Position numbers and translations under genes: made by a program. This document shows, in pieces, positions 3,749-13,336 of a stretch of 13,336 nt of DNA (within the stretch, counting starts at the first letter, position 1; each line of letters opens with the position of its first letter). Origin of the DNA: a virus (taxonomy: Duplodnaviria > Heunggongvirae > Uroviricota > Caudoviricetes). Under the pieces are notes generated by a model, which saw nothing but the letters and a program-made list of their open reading frames with translations, was not told the origin of the DNA and ran no database searches. The stretch is from IMG/VR virus record IMGVR_UViG_2751185957_000009. The stretch is one strand, 5' to 3'.

Positions 3749-4183
3749 TTACTGTTCTGTATCGGCTGATTGCTCCATGCTGGCACGGCGAACGCTTACG
3801 GCATGACGCCACCCAGCCAGAAAGCCAGCCATTTTATTTCGTGCCTTGCTCACATCTTCCGGTGAATAGCCGTAAATCTGCAAACCTTCATCAAATCGAT
3901 GTTCTGTTTCTTCACTGGAGTACTCGTCACGCTCAGATGAAAGCAGCCTGGCAAACATAATTTTTTCCAGCGCACTGGTTTCTACGTGATATCTGATGGC
4001 CTCAAGACGGCTTTTACCTGAAGACCAAAGCAATGTATGCCCGATGTGATAACCGCCAGACTTTCCGCGATCCGCATTAAGATACGGCATCCCCTGTTTG
4101 GTCCATGCGCGAATAGTGGTTCTGTTAACCTTGAAATGTTCAGCTATTTCCTGCTGACTTACAAAACAAGCTTTATCAATCAT
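3749..4183 (-). CDS. Nu1-like small terminase subunit / packaging-specificity protein (144 aa, shorter than lambda gpNu1)
   Basis: The N-terminus (DKACFVSQQEIAEHFKVNRTTIRAWTKQGMPY) parallels the lambda gpNu1 winged-HTH region (NKKQLADIFGASIRTIQNWQEQGMPV). AAGGT Shine-Dalgarno 6 nt before the ATG. Lies between two cosN copies. Confidence 0.7.
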   Translation of the reverse strand: MIDKACFVSQQEIAEHFKVNRTTIRAWTKQGMPYLNADRGKSGGYHIGHTLLWSSGKSRLEAIRYHVETSALEKIMFARLLSSERDEYSSEETEHRFDEGLQIYGYSPEDVSKARNKMAGFLAGWRHAVSVRRASMEQSADTEQ

Positions 4184-4770: not shown

Positions 4771-5106
4771 TTATCGGGCCAGCGGCTGAACGGATACGCC
4801 AGAACCCGCAAAGGCGGCGCATTTTTTCGCATCGGTGTCGACGCTCTCAGGCCAGTTAACGGCGGCAATATTGAATATCCCCGTCTTGTAACACTGTGCT
4901 GATTTCTGCTTTGACGTGTCCACGAGGTACGAAGTCAGATAAACAGCCTTGCCAGATTCCTGACCATCCCACGGCTTAAACTCGCCATTGTCCACCAGCA
5001 TCAGCGGGGTAAATTCCTGAATAACGCCAGCATCAGCGGCAAAATGTACCAGTGTCGTTGATACCTGCTGACTGCCTGCAAATAACTCAATATATGGAGT
5101 GTCCAT
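4771..5106 (-). CDS. Head decoration protein, lambda gpD homolog (111 aa)
   Basis: Similarity to lambda gpD as recalled: TPLMLVDNGEFKPWDG vs TPLMLDTSSRKLVAWDG; CYKTGIFNIAAVNWPESVDTDAKKCAAFAGSGVSV vs [35 protein letters not shown]. Same length class. GGGGGA Shine-Dalgarno. Confidence 0.85.
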   Translation of the reverse strand: MDTPYIELFAGSQQVSTTLVHFAADAGVIQEFTPLMLVDNGEFKPWDGQESGKAVYLTSYLVDTSKQKSAQCYKTGIFNIAAVNWPESVDTDAKKCAAFAGSGVSVQPLAR

Positions 5107-5117
5107 ATAATCCCCCG

Positions 5118-6173
5118 TTAACCAATTTTGACGGTAACAAATTTGCGAATATCTGCCGGAACCGGCTGCGGTGCGCTGTGTGTCTGCACGTACTCAATCG
5201 CCGGATCGCCGTCCTCAATCCAGTTTTTCGGGTAGTACATGTTTTGCGTTGCGCCCGTTCTTACCGCTTCCTGATCCATAATCGCACCATAGGCCACCAG
5301 CCCTTTATTGTTGGTGTTGCCCAGGACCAGCAAATCAGGCTCAAGGAAATATTTTTCGGTGCCGTCGCTGTCAGTGTATTTGCCGGAATAGACAATAAGA
5401 GCAATATCGCCCAGATAGCCTTTAAAGCTCACCACTTCGCCCAGGTTTTTACAGGCCATTTCTGCGGCGGATTCTGAACCACGGGAAAGATCGTACAGTT
5501 CACGGAATTTTTTAAAGCTGCGTAACGTGCGCCATACCTCAGCGCCCATAATCATGACGTTGGCGGGGCAACCTGCCTGATCTGCGTATAGTTCGATGTC
5601 ATAGATTGGATCGTAAATATCTTTATCATGCTCGGACCATTTTTTGCCGTCGGACTGCTCTATGATGTTTTTTTCCGGTATCTTCCAGTCGATTTCATAG
5701 CGTTCTATGCCTTCGCCCTCAATGATGTTTTTTCCGGTCGTTACCGCATTCACCGCCAGCCATTCCACGCGTGCCTTAATGGCGTTTATCTGGCGGCGCA
5801 TGTTGCCAGTAATCAGGCGCATACGGCGATAGGTAGGGTCGTTAAGCTGTGCCGGATCTTCTCCAGCCATGCGCATGATGGTTTTCGTTGGATCGATTTC
5901 GTGCTTTGGCTTCATGTAGCCAGGTTTGATTGTGCTGGTTTCGTACCCTTTATCGCGCTGAACCTGGCTACCCACCATAGGCGAACAAAACGCCGACATG
6001 GTGACTTCTTCAATGTCCAGGGTATCCAGCATGATGTTTTGCGTGCTGAATGTCGCCACGTTCGGGAAAAACAGCGTGGTAAACAGAGGGCTGAATTTAA
6101 AATCCGCAATATCCCCGCGATTCAGGTACATAAAAAGCTGGTTAGTGTTAAGTGCCGTTGCTTTGCCTGCCAT
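5118..6173 (-). CDS. Major capsid protein, lambda gpE homolog (351 aa)
   Basis: Conserved blocks shared with lambda gpE along the whole length: DFKFSPLFTTLFF, IKPGYMKPKHEIDP, GEDPAQLNDPTYRRMRLI, VSFKGYLGDIALIVYSG, YPKNWIEDGDPAIEY. Roughly 45-50% identity by eye. Confidence 0.9.
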   Translation of the reverse strand: MAGKATALNTNQLFMYLNRGDIADFKFSPLFTTLFFPNVATFSTQNIMLDTLDIEEVTMSAFCSPMVGSQVQRDKGYETSTIKPGYMKPKHEIDPTKTIMRMAGEDPAQLNDPTYRRMRLITGNMRRQINAIKARVEWLAVNAVTTGKNIIEGEGIERYEIDWKIPEKNIIEQSDGKKWSEHDKDIYDPIYDIELYADQAGCPANVMIMGAEVWRTLRSFKKFRELYDLSRGSESAAEMACKNLGEVVSFKGYLGDIALIVYSGKYTDSDGTEKYFLEPDLLVLGNTNNKGLVAYGAIMDQEAVRTGATQNMYYPKNWIEDGDPAIEYVQTHSAPQPVPADIRKFVTVKIG

Positions 6174-7262: not shown

Positions 7263-7673
7263 TCAGAACGAAATATCATCACCGTAAGGGTCATCGCCTC
7301 CCGCTGGTGGCTGATTACCCTGTGTGCCTGTGGTTTTGCGTCTGTTCCCGCCTGGACGTGCCGCGCGGGCACTGATTACGCTGTCTGCGATAACCTGCCA
7401 GCCCTGCCGCGTTTCTCCGTTCTGTCCGGTCCACTGGCTTACCTGCATCGTGCCGGATACGCTGGCAACATCGCCTTTTTGATGTTTAGCCAGGAAGTCG
7501 GCCTGTTTGCCAAATGCGATGACCGATAACCATAACGTCGCCTGTCCGTCCTGTGCCTGGCTGCATGGCAAAGATACCGCCATACGCGCCAGCGTCATCG
7601 GTGTGCCCTTGCTGGTCTGTTTTACCTGCGGGTCGTCCACCAGCCGCCCGTAAGCGGCTATCTGTGCCGTCAT
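7263..7673 (-). CDS. ssb: Single-stranded DNA-binding protein (136 aa)
   Basis: OB-fold pattern (GRLVDDP..., WLSVIAFGKQADFLAKHQKGDVASVSGTMQVSQWTGQNGETRQGWQVIADSV), Gly/Pro-rich linker and acidic C-terminal tip DDPYGDDISF resembling the SSB DDDIPF tail. Strong GGAGAGGTGG Shine-Dalgarno. Confidence 0.8.
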   Translation of the reverse strand: MTAQIAAYGRLVDDPQVKQTSKGTPMTLARMAVSLPCSQAQDGQATLWLSVIAFGKQADFLAKHQKGDVASVSGTMQVSQWTGQNGETRQGWQVIADSVISARAARPGGNRRKTTGTQGNQPPAGGDDPYGDDISF

Positions 7674-7921
7674 AATTCCACCTCTCCGGTTTTAACGTTG
7701 ATGGTTGTTACCTGTTCCGCTTCGGCAATCTCCCGTTCTGTCAGCGTGGCAAAGTTTGCCGCCGCCGTGGTCATGAATGCGCTTATCAGGTCGGGATGTT
7801 CCTTCGCGTATCCTTCCCGCGTGTGGCGGTCTATCGTTCTGATTGCCACCTTTAAGGTGTGCTCAGTCATGTCTAACGCTTTATATTTTGGCTCTGTTCT
7901 GTCTCTGCGTTTTTGGGTCAT
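7670..7921 (-). CDS. Hypothetical protein (83 aa), coupled to ssb
   Basis: Its stop overlaps the ssb start (ATGA). ATG at 7921 with GAGAGG Shine-Dalgarno. The longer form in the ORF track would start at a GTG inside the iteron array. Confidence 0.5.
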   Translation of the reverse strand: MTQKRRDRTEPKYKALDMTEHTLKVAIRTIDRHTREGYAKEHPDLISAFMTTAAANFATLTEREIAEAEQVTTINVKTGEVEL

Positions 7922-7930
7922 TTCTCGCAA

Positions 7931-8123
7931 CCTCTCACTTTTTCGCCTCACTTTTTCAAGCGTCTCACTTCGTCGCAGTTGGGATTTTCGGTTTTTCTAT
8001 GTGTGTGTTTTATAAGTATTTTTTTACCCCTCACTTTTGAGGATGTATACAGGTCGAAAAGTGAGGGAGAGCGGGCTAATTTTGGCCCTCTTTCTATCCC
8101 CCTCGCTTTTGCTCCTCACTTTT
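7931..8123. repeat. Putative replication origin: at least six CCTCACTTTT iterons around an AT-rich spacer, directly 3' of the replicase gene
   Basis: Iterons at 7934, 7948, 7964 (variant), 8029, 8101 (variant) and 8114, plus one inverted copy at 8057-8066. AT-rich stretch 7991-8027. The last iteron overlaps the replicase stop codon. Confidence 0.65.
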
Positions 8124-9522
8124 ATAGCGGCGCTACATCATCCCCATCGATACTAATAACCCCATCTTTTTCCAGCTTGTACAGCCAGCGCCGGAAGTTT
8201 TTCATTTCATACCCCAGCTTTTTCATGTCATCACGTAACAGCGGGATCGTGCACTTGTCGCCGTTCTGTGTGCGTGAACGGATGCACCCCCATAGCGCGG
8301 TATGGTTTTCCGTCTTGTTCCCTGCCTCCTCGATGCGCTCCAGTTCAACAGGAGGGCGCGGATCATCCACCACCACCAGCGACGTGATTAATTCACCGTC
8401 AGCGTCGGTAAAAAGCTCCACCACGCGTAAGTCATATGCGGCTTCTTTGAGTTCCTCCGCGTCCTTCATTTTGGTGCATGAGATAACCAGCGCTTTGCTT
8501 CCTGCGTCCTCCCTGCGTATCCGGTATTCAGCATCCAGCGAAGCACGAAATGCACTGGAACCGCGCGCGCCTTTCGTCTCATCCTTGCCGGAATGGTGAA
8601 CCACCAGCACCGTGGCCCCTGTGCGTCGTTTCAGTTCGTCACAACCACGGATAAACGCCCCCATATCACGGGAATCATTTTCATCATTCCCACCAAAGCA
8701 ACGCGCCAGCGTATCCAGAATAATCATGCGTACAGGTTTACCCGTTTCCCGCTCCACCTGACGGGCAGCGATAACCATTTCATCAACATCAAGCGGGGCA
8801 GCCGGAAAGATGGGGCGGTTTACCAGATACAGATTTTTCACCTGCTCATCGTGCACAACCTCCCAGGCTTTTACACGACGCGGAACGCCGATACCGCCTT
8901 CACCAACCACATAGAGAACCGCACCATGTGCAACCCTGCGGCCTCCCCACTGGCGACCAGTGGCAACATGGCACGCCCACGATCCGGCAAGGAATGATTT
9001 ATAGGACCCGCTAGCCCCGTATATGCTGCATAGCGATACCGCCGGAATAATCCCCTTAACCACGTAATCCAGTTGCGTGTCGTATCCGGTAGATCCAACG
9101 CTCATCGGTAGCGTGGTTTTTCGCTGGTGGTTTTTTTCTTCCACCGGCTCTTTCCCGCGCACCCGTTCCAGGTATTCGCGCCAGTTCTCCCGCATATGGC
9201 TGTGCATCCCTTCGGGGTAATAATTCGCATCAGTTACACCCGCCGCCGCCAGCTTGTGCGCAATGGCATTAATATTTGATGGCCTGATGTGGCCTGCCTT
9301 GTACAGCCGGACACAATAGCGCCCCTCGTCGATGATTCTCAGGTCTGCCAGTTCATCCAGTTGATCATCAGCCAGCACAACGGGAGGCACATTATCGCCA
9401 GCCAGTCGCCCGTCCTGTTCCTGCCACTGTTTTGCATGTGCCCAGGCATCACTACCCGCAAAAATAATGACTTCGGTCATCTTGTCGTAAGGCTGTTTTT
9501 TTAAGTTCGGTGCGCTTTTCAT
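8122..9522 (-). CDS. Replication protein with RecA-like AAA_25 ATPase domain (satellite replicase/helicase, 466 aa)
   Basis: P-loop-like YGASGSYKSF, Walker B-like MIILD, and the signature VLVVHHSGKDETKGARGSSAFRASLDAEY typical of AAA_25 replicative ATPases. Its start overlaps the upstream ORF stop (ATGA). Confidence 0.8.
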   Translation of the reverse strand: MKSAPNLKKQPYDKMTEVIIFAGSDAWAHAKQWQEQDGRLAGDNVPPVVLADDQLDELADLRIIDEGRYCVRLYKAGHIRPSNINAIAHKLAAAGVTDANYYPEGMHSHMRENWREYLERVRGKEPVEEKNHQRKTTLPMSVGSTGYDTQLDYVVKGIIPAVSLCSIYGASGSYKSFLAGSWACHVATGRQWGGRRVAHGAVLYVVGEGGIGVPRRVKAWEVVHDEQVKNLYLVNRPIFPAAPLDVDEMVIAARQVERETGKPVRMIILDTLARCFGGNDENDSRDMGAFIRGCDELKRRTGATVLVVHHSGKDETKGARGSSAFRASLDAEYRIRREDAGSKALVISCTKMKDAEELKEAAYDLRVVELFTDADGELITSLVVVDDPRPPVELERIEEAGNKTENHTALWGCIRSRTQNGDKCTIPLLRDDMKKLGYEMKNFRRWLYKLEKDGVISIDGDDVAPL

Positions 9523-9818
9523 TTCTTGCCCCTGAATCCGTTAATCATGGTTTTCAGCTTCTGGATGTTTGCCCGTGCCCTGGCGTTGCTGGTGGGCACG
9601 TTATGCGGCGCGGTCTGTACCAGAGAAAAATCACGCCGGAACTGATAAACAGGCATCACGCAATCATATTCGTAACCTTCACGGCGGTAGGTTACACGCC
9701 GTTCTTCCACGCCCTTAATCATTACCGTGCCGCCGTACTGGTCGCGGTAAATATCACCGCGCGTAAATTTAGGGTGAGTGTTGCCACTGGCAGTTAAGCC
9801 AGAATATTTAAGTTTCAT
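9519..9818 (-). CDS. Hypothetical protein (99 aa), coupled to the replicase
   Basis: ORF with GGAGA Shine-Dalgarno; its stop overlaps the replicase ATG. Confidence 0.5.
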   Translation of the reverse strand: MKLKYSGLTASGNTHPKFTRGDIYRDQYGGTVMIKGVEERRVTYRREGYEYDCVMPVYQFRRDFSLVQTAPHNVPTSNARARANIQKLKTMINGFRGKK

Positions 9819-11392: not shown

Positions 11393-11599
11393 TTAAGCAG
11401 CCGTTCCGCGTGCTTCCTGTTCGCGTTCTTTCTGCCAGGCCAACACATCATCCTCATACCATCCGCGACGGCGTAAACCAACGCGAAAACCCTGCGGAAA
11501 TTCTCCGGCGTTGATCATGCTTTGCAGCGTGCTGTCTGCCTTGATGTGGATAATTTTTTTTACTTCCTGGCGAAAGATAATTTTTCTGATTGCTTCCAT
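11393..11599 (-). CDS. alpA: AlpA-family transcriptional regulator / excisionase-like protein (68 aa)
   Basis: Motif RQEVKKIIHIKADSTLQSMINAGEFPQGFRVGLRRRGWYEDDVLAWQKER matches the AlpA (Phage_AlpA) pattern as recalled (EV..I.....STLY.....G.FP..IKLG.R.V.W...EV..W). AAGGT Shine-Dalgarno. Confidence 0.8.
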   Translation of the reverse strand: MEAIRKIIFRQEVKKIIHIKADSTLQSMINAGEFPQGFRVGLRRRGWYEDDVLAWQKEREQEARGTAA

Positions 11600-11731
11600 C
11601 GTGATTTACCTTGTGAATCCGGTGTATTCCGGTGACAAATACGGTAAATCATCGGATATGGGTAAAAACAGTTCCCACCGTTTTTAAACGGTATACACCG
11701 TTTTTATATTGATGATTTGAAATGGAATTAT

Positions 11732-12094: not shown

Positions 12095-13336
12095 CTACAC
12101 GGCTCGGATACCCCTTTTACCACTGGCGAGGGTTACGCCCGTCGCCGCAGCCTCGACAAATTCGCCCCACCAGCGCATCAGCACGATGCGTTTTTCTATG
12201 TAGTTGCTCCGGTTGTATGCCCGTCTAACTTCGTTGGTGTCGACGTGGGCAAGTGCCGCCTCTATTACGTCCGGCTCGAATCCTTCCTCGTTCGCTGCTG
12301 TGCTGAATATGGCGCGTAATCCATGAGACACCAGCACGCCAGCGAATCCCATACGCCGCAATGCTGCGTTAGCTGTCTGGCTGTTCATCGGCTGCTGTGG
12401 GTCTTTCAGACTTGGGAAAACGTAATTGCGGTGGTGGCTGATTGGTTTCATGGCCTCCAGCACCGCCATAGCCTGACCGGAAAGCGGGATAACGTGATCC
12501 CTGCGCATCTTCATGCGTCCGGCAGGTATCGTCCATTGCTTCGCGTCCAGGTTGATTTCATCCCACCGCGTTGATGACGCTTCGGCGGGACGGGTTACGG
12601 TCAGTAACTGCCATTCAATCAGTAATCTGGTCTGCCGTTCTGTTGCCGATACTGATAAAGCCTGCATAAGCTCCGGCAGCTGTTCGGGGCGGATTGTTGG
12701 CATATGTTTTTTTACAGGTGAGGGAAACGCCTTACGCACATTCATAGCCGGATTGGCATCAATCAGCCCACTGTTGGCGGCGTAATCCATTACCTCATTA
12801 ACGCGCTGTAAAACCCGCTTGAGTGTTTCCAGGTTGCCGCGCTCCTTGATGGGTGTAAGCACTTCAACGAACCTTCGGGCGGTGAGGGTATCTATTGGCG
12901 TGTTGCCGATGAACGGGAATACATATTTATCCAGCGAACGCCAGATGTCTTTAATCGTGTTGGGGGCCAGATTCTGGCTGATTTTCACCTGGTACCATGC
13001 CGCCGCCACATTTTCGAACGTGTTCCCTTGTCTTCGGGCCTCTGCCTCTCGTTTTTTCTTCTCATGGCCCTGCGGGTCAGTTCCGGCACTGATTAACGCT
13101 CTGTACTCGCTACGGCGTTTTCTGGCATCAGCCAGGGAAACATCATCAAGCGATCCAAAACTCAGCAATATTCTTTTTTTGTCCGATGGCCGGTAGTAGG
13201 AAAATCGCCAGAGTTTTGATCCGGACGGTTTGACCAGGAGAAAAAGCCCTCCGCCGTCCTGTAGGGTGTATTCCTTTTCCGCTGGTCTGGCTGCTTTGAT
13301 CTGCACCGTGGTTAATGGGGGTGTTTTTCTCGCCAT
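12095..13336 (-). CDS. int: P4-type tyrosine integrase (413 aa)
   Basis: N-terminal arm-binding domain typical of P4-like integrases (LTTVQIKAARPAEKEYTLQDGGGLFLLVKPSGSKLWRFSYY), C-terminal catalytic region with HGLR and the tyrosine in RRAYNRSNY. Start codon is the last three bases of the window. Confidence 0.9.
   Translation of the reverse strand: MARKTPPLTTVQIKAARPAEKEYTLQDGGGLFLLVKPSGSKLWRFSYYRPSDKKRILLSFGSLDDVSLADARKRRSEYRALISAGTDPQGHEKKKREAEARRQGNTFENVAAAWYQVKISQNLAPNTIKDIWRSLDKYVFPFIGNTPIDTLTARRFVEVLTPIKERGNLETLKRVLQRVNEVMDYAANSGLIDANPAMNVRKAFPSPVKKHMPTIRPEQLPELMQALSVSATERQTRLLIEWQLLTVTRPAEASSTRWDEINLDAKQWTIPAGRMKMRRDHVIPLSGQAMAVLEAMKPISHHRNYVFPSLKDPQQPMNSQTANAALRRMGFAGVLVSHGLRAIFSTAANEEGFEPDVIEAALAHVDTNEVRRAYNRSNYIEKRIVLMRWWGEFVEAAATGVTLASGKRGIRAV

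Follow-up and report, generated by a model that had tools for sequence, protein, structure and literature searches.

A probable vegetative replication origin with Rep-cognate iterons, located directly 3' of an AAA_25 replicase gene in a Gram-negative phage-inducible chromosomal island

The stretch of DNA analysed here, to which we refer as the window (13,336 nucleotides), is occupied by an island whose genes all lie on the minus strand, with yejO as a plus-strand gene at the left end. A gene for a tyrosine integrase (12095-13336) is accompanied by a putative AlpA-like ORF of 68 aa (11393-11599), annotated in relatives only as 'helix-turn-helix transcriptional regulator', and by genes for a DUF4222 protein (9519-9818), a replicase of 466 aa (rep, 8122..9522; Pfam AAA_25, E = 2.3e-43), an 83-aa protein (7670..7921; phrog_1231, E = 3.3e-53), SSB (7263-7673), a lambda-E-like major capsid protein (5118-6173) and a D-like decoration protein (4771-5106); a PerC gene is listed between those of SSB and the capsid protein. 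The features that serve to recognise a phage-inducible chromosomal island (PICI), namely integrase, AlpA-like protein, rep-ori, unidirectional genes and phage-like morphogenesis genes in an element of about 10-15 kb that lacks the complete gene set of a phage, were all found. Since the island shares its backbone with EcCIEDL933 (L008), the prototype of capsid-forming PICIs, and since rep-ori is near-identical in E. coli islands, we regard it, on sequence grounds, as a Gram-negative PICI. Hundreds of E. coli genomes, O157:H7 among them, carry the rep-ori stretch at 99.6-99.8% identity (one O157:H7 example of the island sits between phoQ and roxA); of 5,426 complete genomes, about 1,500 have it.

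Even at 99.8% rep-ori identity, islands vary at their packaging end. Window 3749-4183 encodes a 144-aa hypothetical protein, found also in L002 at the same yejO site, whereas the O157:H7 copy has an annotated small terminase subunit there (L001:4995-5537). At the other end, a perfect DnaA box, TTATCCACA, lies at 11545-11553, inside the AlpA-like coding sequence. Direct and inverted copies of ACCGTTTTTA/TAAAAACGGT were seen close to where this gene begins, as well as just upstream (11659-11706), and look like an operator region at the regulatory end of the island.

The gap of 200 nt between the rep stop codon and the next gene (7922-8121; the ATG of the 83-aa ORF is at 7921) is filled by an array of a 10-nt repeat, CCTCACTTTT. 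Seven copies lie at 7933-8123. Four of them are perfect (7946-7955, 8029-8038, 8114-8123 and the sole inverted copy, 8057-8066, on the minus strand), two carry one mismatch (the distal-most copy at 7933-7942, TCTCACTTTT, and that at 8101, CCTCGCTTTT), and the copy at 7962-7971 (TCTCACTTCG) is degenerate, with two mismatches, and was found via its 7-nt core CTCACTT. When up to one mismatch was allowed, six sites fell within 7933-8123 and a single match, at 364, in the rest of the 13.3 kb; no second cluster of the motif was found elsewhere in the window at this tolerance. The seven matches observed in the whole window compare with 0.81 expected from dinucleotide-preserving shuffles, and none of the 200 shuffles reached seven.

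The iterons form two clusters around an AT-rich stretch. The rep-proximal cluster (8101..8123, minus strand) consists of two direct copies (AAAAGTGAGG and AAAAGCGAGG as read on the rep strand), of which the first, at 8114-8123, shares two bases with the TAA stop codon of rep (8122-8124). The rep-distal cluster (7933..7971, minus strand) consists of three direct copies, the last of which overlaps the Shine-Dalgarno sequence of the next gene. This distal-most copy, AAAAGTGAGA on the minus strand, covers part of a Shine-Dalgarno-like GAGAGG that precedes the ATG of the 83-aa ORF by 9 nt, and in islands with GGGG-type iterons the equivalent copy abuts the ATG directly. Binding of Rep at this site might affect expression of the downstream genes.

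Between the clusters, the copies at 8029-8038 and 8057-8066 form an inverted iteron pair (8029..8066). The arms of the inverted repeat extend to 11 nt each (8028-8038 and 8057-8067), are 100% complementary and are separated by 18 nt; as single-stranded DNA the repeat folds at -9.7 kcal/mol (z = -3.5). The 18-nt gap contains, on the rep strand, the sequence CTGTATA (window 8046-8052), which is invariant in 11 E. coli/E. albertii origins regardless of their iteron type and may serve as a nucleus of melting or be bound by a host factor. In more distant origins a TGTATATA-like sequence was seen at the same position, again with any iteron type. The AT-rich spacer between the iteron sets (7972..8027), which we propose as the strand-opening site, belongs to a region with a GC content of 0.32 at 7980-8039 and of 0.32-0.33 across 7980-8059, compared with about 0.5-0.65 in the flanking genes. 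Related loci have an A-rich gap at the corresponding place, about 100-150 nt after the rep stop.

Other signals were sought in and around the gap. No DnaA box (with at most one mismatch) was found in 7900-8140, and the number of such boxes in the whole window was at chance level; a DnaA-dependent origin was rejected on these grounds. Similarly, the idea of a promoter in the gap was abandoned, as no sigma-70-like site was found in 7500-8500. A terminator scan detected none on the minus strand within the gap, and no T run follows the hairpin on the rep strand; the inverted repeat was therefore rejected as a terminator. The preliminary description of this region had spoken of at least six copies placed just 3' of the AAA_25 replicase gene and overlapping its stop, of an inverted copy pairing with a neighbour, and of an AT-rich spacer. 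The placement, the pairing and the spacer were all borne out by the coordinates and values given above. The count stands if one mismatch is tolerated, with the degenerate copy as a seventh, but only four copies are perfect.

Three regions were distinguished in Rep. The N-terminal one is of alpha/beta type (about residues 1-124), the middle one (about 148-390) is an AAA_25/RepA-like helicase core of RecA fold, and the C-terminal one (about 400-466) is a predicted winged helix. The full-length protein matches phrog_2850. Residues 150-320 match RepA of RSF1010 (PDB 1g8y), the sequence match being weak (E = 0.0056), and residues 3-124 weakly match a part of phrog_864, 'DNA primase'. No primase was identified with confidence, and the Pfam scan of ten window ORFs gave no other replication initiator or primase.

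The full-length AF2 model of Rep was poor (mean pLDDT 61.5), and its matches in a fold search were to the cores of Rad51, RadA, KaiC and T7 gp4, consistent with the weak sequence match to RSF1010 RepA. Because this model was poor outside the core, only the RecA-like core was recovered from it, and it was set aside as a means of finding the reader domain. Residues 391-466 were modelled separately with AF2. The C-terminal domain alone gave a mean pLDDT of 86.5 and is predicted to have the order helix-helix-helix-strand-strand, with three main helices and a beta hairpin, preceded by a short N-terminal helix of low confidence. Its Foldseek matches were winged-helix DNA-binding domains (LexA-DNA 3jso, DtxR/IdeR, MotA, MarR and IclR types, and the winged helix of MCM), with a probability of 0.9-0.97, TMq of 0.6-0.67 and rmsd of 2-3 A; the E-values were weak (0.1-0.4), which is usual for a domain of 65 residues. 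The region coding for the putative winged helix corresponds to 8125..8325 (minus strand; Rep residues 400-466). Helix 3 of the winged-helix fold is the usual recognition helix, and Asn442, the proposed specificity residue (codon 8197-8199, minus strand), stands directly before helix 3 (443-452).

Bona fide phages share with this protein only the helicase core, at 41% identity or less, and lack the C-terminal domain, so that phage origins could not serve in the comparison. The homologues of Rep that other genera encode (L010-L035 from Xenorhabdus, and L050-L066) are about 680-730 aa long and have a long, different N-terminal region, as against 466 aa in E. coli; the helicase core and the winged helix are common to the homologues across genera, and the N-terminal module is swapped.

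The comparison of E. coli islands pointed to Rep as the reader of the repeats. Window 7600-7923 has a counterpart of about 93% identity in many of these islands, where the similarity breaks off at the start codon of the 83-aa ORF; toward islands that carry a different replicase, homology is lost at window 7923-7928 (query positions 324-329). The 83-aa ORF, which directly follows the array, thus lies at the edge of the rep-ori cassette and outside the origin proper. In E. coli islands, three unrelated replicases were found to occupy the place between the gene for DUF4222 and the 83-aa ORF, each with iterons of its own in the gap after it. The AAA_25/RepA-like protein is accompanied by AAAAGTG[A/G]GG, a P4-family primase (TIGR01613) by at least nine copies of GGTAGA[C/T]A (L002:7955-8242), and the DUF927/Cch-like Rep of EcCIEDL933 by 11 copies of TGCGGGTTA (L008:3323-3692). 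At the same time, the DUF4222 proteins of the window and L002 are identical in 98 of 99 positions, and the 83-aa proteins of the window and L008 in 75 of 83. As the repeats are replaced while these two proteins barely change, neither neighbour can be what reads them. Judged from these comparisons, rep and the repeats are one exchangeable cassette and are inherited together.

The same arrangement was found in other genera. A scan of one genome per species detected homologues of Rep, 50-70% identical, at 80 loci distributed among Xenorhabdus, Pantoea, Pectobacterium, Serratia, Morganella, Citrobacter, Kluyvera and other Enterobacterales. In a segment of 315 nt around the rep stop (15 nt of the gene itself and the next 300 nt downstream), at least seven copies of one 8-mer, with at most one mismatch, were present in 67 of 83 loci, the E. 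coli ones included, compared with 8 of 424 control windows; the latter were dismissed as iteron arrays, being AT-rich low-complexity sequence or short tandem repeats. In about 70 Enterobacterales loci, one motif is repeated 5-13 times within 300 nt downstream of rep, in a shared layout. Counted from the rep stop, 2-4 direct copies come first (0-40 nt), followed by a single inverted one (about 55-72 nt), a direct one (about 86-102 nt), an A-rich gap and a further 3-4 direct copies (about 150-207 nt). The proximal iteron positions are occupied in all aligned relatives, and about seven loci lack a clear array. Two loci from Pantoea/Enterobacter have short tandem repeats about 1 kb downstream of the origin, made of GCCTACAT-type 9-mers present eight times (L059:4570-4640) and of 7-nt units (L044:4567-4600); these are unrelated to the iterons.

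Within the Rep family, the iterons vary together with a single residue. The core of the iteron on the rep strand is GTG-N-GG, and N tracks the Rep residue which precedes F/M/L-x-R-W-L near the C-terminus. Asn, as in the window (N442), is paired with A in 28 of 28 loci, Lys with G in 33 of 33, His with G in 14 of 15, and Ser or Gly (RKSF/RKGF) with C in 8 of 8; the only exception is a His-type locus without clear iterons (L082). The pairing was thus held in 83 of 84 loci, a figure that overstates the number of independent events, since the residue classes are partly clade-specific. For the same reason, matched pairs of closely related loci weigh more. The last 70 residues of the Reps P0047 and P0004 differ by N/H alone, and their origins carry AGTGAGG seven times and AGTGGGG seven times, respectively, at the same positions. 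The Reps of L093 and L094 are identical in 462 of 468 positions and have N and H, with GAGG and GGGG in the respective proximal iterons. The Rep of L006 is 94% identical to that of the window, but has His and is accompanied by GGGG iterons.

The E. albertii locus L093 (2593-2826), with its Asn-type Rep, has a hybrid origin, with GAGG in the proximal set and the inverted pair and GGGG in the distal set; this sequence suggests a recombination breakpoint in the AT-rich spacer. The covariation is thus not absolute, as is also seen from a Salmonella locus (L095) whose repeats are mixed or degenerate. Another residue, N420, covaried with the iterons in the first six E. coli Reps and was dropped as a determinant, as P0047 and P0004 both have Arg at this position and yet their iterons differ. 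Preference of Asn for adenine, and of His or Lys for guanine, is usual in direct readout of DNA, and we infer that it applies to the pairs of Asn442 with A and of His and Lys with G. Accepted as a rule, the pairing would mean that Asn reads GTGAGG, His or Lys GTGGGG, and Ser or Gly GTGCGG.

The anatomy of the array, its position 3' of rep, its behaviour as a cassette, its covariation with a Rep residue, the predicted winged helix and the published layout of PICI origins together make it very probable that a Gram-negative PICI has its vegetative replication origin at window 7933-8123, with iterons cognate to Rep, and that it is here that binding, melting, helicase loading and replication would take place. 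That Rep is the cognate reader of the iterons is strongly suggested by the sequence comparisons (co-inheritance in the cassette, the covariation and the matched pairs) and by the modelled winged-helix fold. The preliminary description had likewise proposed an iteron-type origin 3' of the replicase gene, and this proposal gains support from a layout conserved among relatives and from repeats which change with the replicase type and with one winged-helix residue. It had also named conservation in related islands as the point on which the proposal could fail; the iterons proved to be conserved in E. coli relatives and in about 70 other Enterobacterales loci. Its remark that such placement is the usual arrangement in satellites agrees with the organisation described for Gram-negative PICIs (PMC6092414).

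On the basis of these observations, a course of initiation may be proposed. Upon induction of the island, Rep would be made, and its C-terminal winged helix would bind the 10-nt iterons (AAAAGTGAGG on the rep strand), with Asn442, at the start of the recognition helix, reading base 5 of the core, the A of GTG-A-GG. By means of the head-to-head pair and the flanking direct sets, Rep molecules would gather on both sides of the AT-rich spacer. Bound Rep could then open the AT-rich DNA, the TATA-like centre of the inverted pair, or both. The RecA-fold, RSF1010-RepA-like helicase core of Rep itself might load at this opening without DnaA, and the first primer could be provided either by host primase or by the small N-terminal domain of Rep. 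All steps after the reading of the iterons are modelled here by analogy with the Reps of SaPIs and with RSF1010 RepA.

It might be argued that the repeats serve as Rep-binding operators in regulation only, either in autoregulation of rep or in control of the downstream genes (those of the 83-aa protein, SSB, PerC and capsid), and that the origin lies elsewhere. Iterons of plasmid initiators often double as operators, the distal-most copy overlaps a Shine-Dalgarno sequence, and covariation with Rep speaks to binding rather than to initiation. However, the array is located downstream of rep, away from its promoter, 7500-8500 gave no match to a sigma-70-like promoter, the motif has no other cluster in the window, and two sets with an AT-rich centre and an inverted pair constitute the architecture shown to matter in EcCICFT073 and SaPIs. 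We consider a purely regulatory function quite unlikely; a regulatory side role is compatible with the array being an origin. Still less probable is that the repeats bind another regulator of the island or of the helper phage (AlpA, PerC, DUF4222 or the 83-aa protein) as a promoter or operator for late (packaging) genes. The intergenic gap does precede an operon with PerC and capsid genes, but it contains no promoter-like site, and both the replacement of the repeats next to unchanged DUF4222 (98/99) and 83-aa (75/83) proteins and the one-base change accompanying one C-terminal residue of Rep argue against such a reader.

Formation of a hairpin by the 11-nt inverted repeat, at the folding energy given above, could indicate a transcription terminator of rep, or the region could be a packaging (cos/pac) site, the direct repeats being incidental in either case. 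On the rep strand, however, an A run rather than a T run follows the hairpin, and the minus-strand scan of the gap was negative. A packaging site would stand 3-4 kb away from the head and terminase genes. Moreover, the stem is the iteron itself and changes with Rep, and seven copies are far above chance; we find both variants hardly credible. A separate problem is whether the origin, real in kind, is dead in this copy, the island being a decaying, non-mobile remnant. Signs of decay are present in relatives: the distal half of the origin is lost, next to pseudogenes, in L007, a Salmonella locus (L095:2587-2860) has mixed or degenerate iterons, and the capsid and integrase genes of L002 contain internal stops. 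In the window, three of the seven copies carry mismatches. On the other hand, functional-looking relatives have mismatched copies at the same positions, the Rep ORF is intact, and the near-identity of rep-ori in hundreds of E. coli genomes speaks against decay. A dead copy is thus unlikely, and we return to the reading of the region as an origin served by its own Rep.

The PICI origin as a kind of element, with its layout, is already known, and the current picture of satellite replication is left unchanged by our results. What they provide is a candidate cis-acting replication site for a very common type of E. coli island, carrying PerC-type virulence regulators and capsid genes. With the origin and its cognate Rep assigned, minimal replicons could be constructed, islands could be tested for incompatibility, and copy number could be assayed once a helper phage has induced the island; the region is also a possible source of orthogonal small replicons. 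In the open-access literature we found no description of a class of Rep composed of a RecA-fold helicase and a winged helix with AAAAGTG-N-GG iterons, nor of a one-residue/one-base covariation; searches of this literature with the iteron strings returned unrelated primer coincidences only, and no experimental test of the AAA_25-Rep type of origin was found there.

Tentatively, and with slightly less than even confidence, we suggest that the rep slot of PICIs takes a third non-homologous class of initiator, an RSF1010-RepA-like helicase of RecA fold with a winged-helix reader, in which essentially a single residue, where the recognition helix begins, decides replicon specificity. If this is true, natural single-residue switches would create mutually orthogonal origins and several islands could coexist in one cell, and hybrid origins such as that of L093 would have been caught in the middle of a switch. 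The natural series from Asn, His and Lys to A and G offers a simple, testable case of initiator and origin changing their specificity jointly.

Among known replication systems, the classical iteron plasmids (pPS10, R6K, RK2, F and P1) share with the window repeated initiator sites beside an AT-rich unwinding element, and a winged-helix reader. Their iterons, however, are 17-22 bp long, tandem and helically phased, whereas the repeats described here are of 10 nt and irregularly spaced. These plasmids have DnaA boxes and need DnaA, DnaB and DnaC, in contrast to window 7900-8140 with no DnaA box, and their initiator is not a helicase, whereas that of the window has a helicase core. The origin thus departs from the classical plasmid type in repeat length, spacing, DnaA box and initiator type.

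The closest solved relative of the helicase core of Rep is RepA of the IncQ plasmid RSF1010 (PDB 1g8y). The oriV of RSF1010 has iterons and an AT-rich region and is DnaA-independent. In that system, iterons of about 20 bp are bound by a separate protein, RepC, and a separate primase, RepB', acts at ssi sites, whereas the helicase of the window carries its own predicted winged-helix reader; no homologue of RepC or RepB' was seen in the Pfam scan of ten window ORFs. The helicase core alone is therefore shared, and the origin does not group with IncQ oriV.

Satellite P4, with its ori and crr sites and alpha protein, is similar in context, as it too is an enterobacterial phage satellite with integrase, AlpA-like and Icd-like genes. 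The type I iteron of P4, TGTTCACC, is unrelated to that of the window. P4 has two separated cis elements, ori and crr, and its alpha protein is a primase with an SF3 helicase; the window has one compact array 3' of the gene and a Rep of AAA_25 RecA fold, which sets its origin apart from the P4 type, although a P4-family primase does occupy the rep slot in the sister island L002. The likeness lies in a single multifunctional replicase, the C-terminal domain of which binds short repeated octamers, direct and inverted, in the case of alpha (PMC6092414).

The most extensive correspondence is with other PICIs. According to Fillol-Salom et al. 2018, the origin of Gram-negative PICIs is the region directly 3' of rep, in which two sets of iterons flank an AT-rich region, and the rep-ori of EcCICFT073 maintains a ts plasmid, maintenance being impaired by deletion of rep or ori (PMC6092414). 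The Rep of EcCICFT073, as reported in the cf-PICI paper, is the same as that of EcCIEDL933 and unrelated in type to the Rep of the window, and thus the support from this island concerns position and architecture, not homology. Autonomous replication driven by rep-ori has been demonstrated for SaPIs too, again with Reps of another type than that of the window (PMC6092414). SaPI origins contain six to twelve iterons of 5-6 nt just downstream of rep, divided equally between the two sides of an AT-rich centre, with no fewer than two per side in opposite orientation; the protein that binds them is a self-loading helicase, which does so through its C-terminal winged helix (PMC9371898). The window differs in having fewer inversions, namely one inverted copy (8057-8066, facing 8029-8038), as do its relatives, and in iteron sequences unrelated to those of the other PICI origins. 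The SaPI Reps are described as superfamily-3/AAA+ helicases (PMC9371898), whereas the Rep of the window has a RecA-fold, AAA_25/RSF1010-RepA-like core. On the other hand, the origins of SaPIs, EcCICFT073 and EcCIEDL933 and that of the window are all located directly 3' of rep and have short iterons (about 6-10 nt), particular to the cognate Rep (very probably so in our case), which form two sets around an AT-rich region and include one or more copies of opposite orientation. They also share an initiator that is a helicase with a C-terminal winged helix (predicted in our case) and a context of int, alpA, unidirectional genes and PerC.
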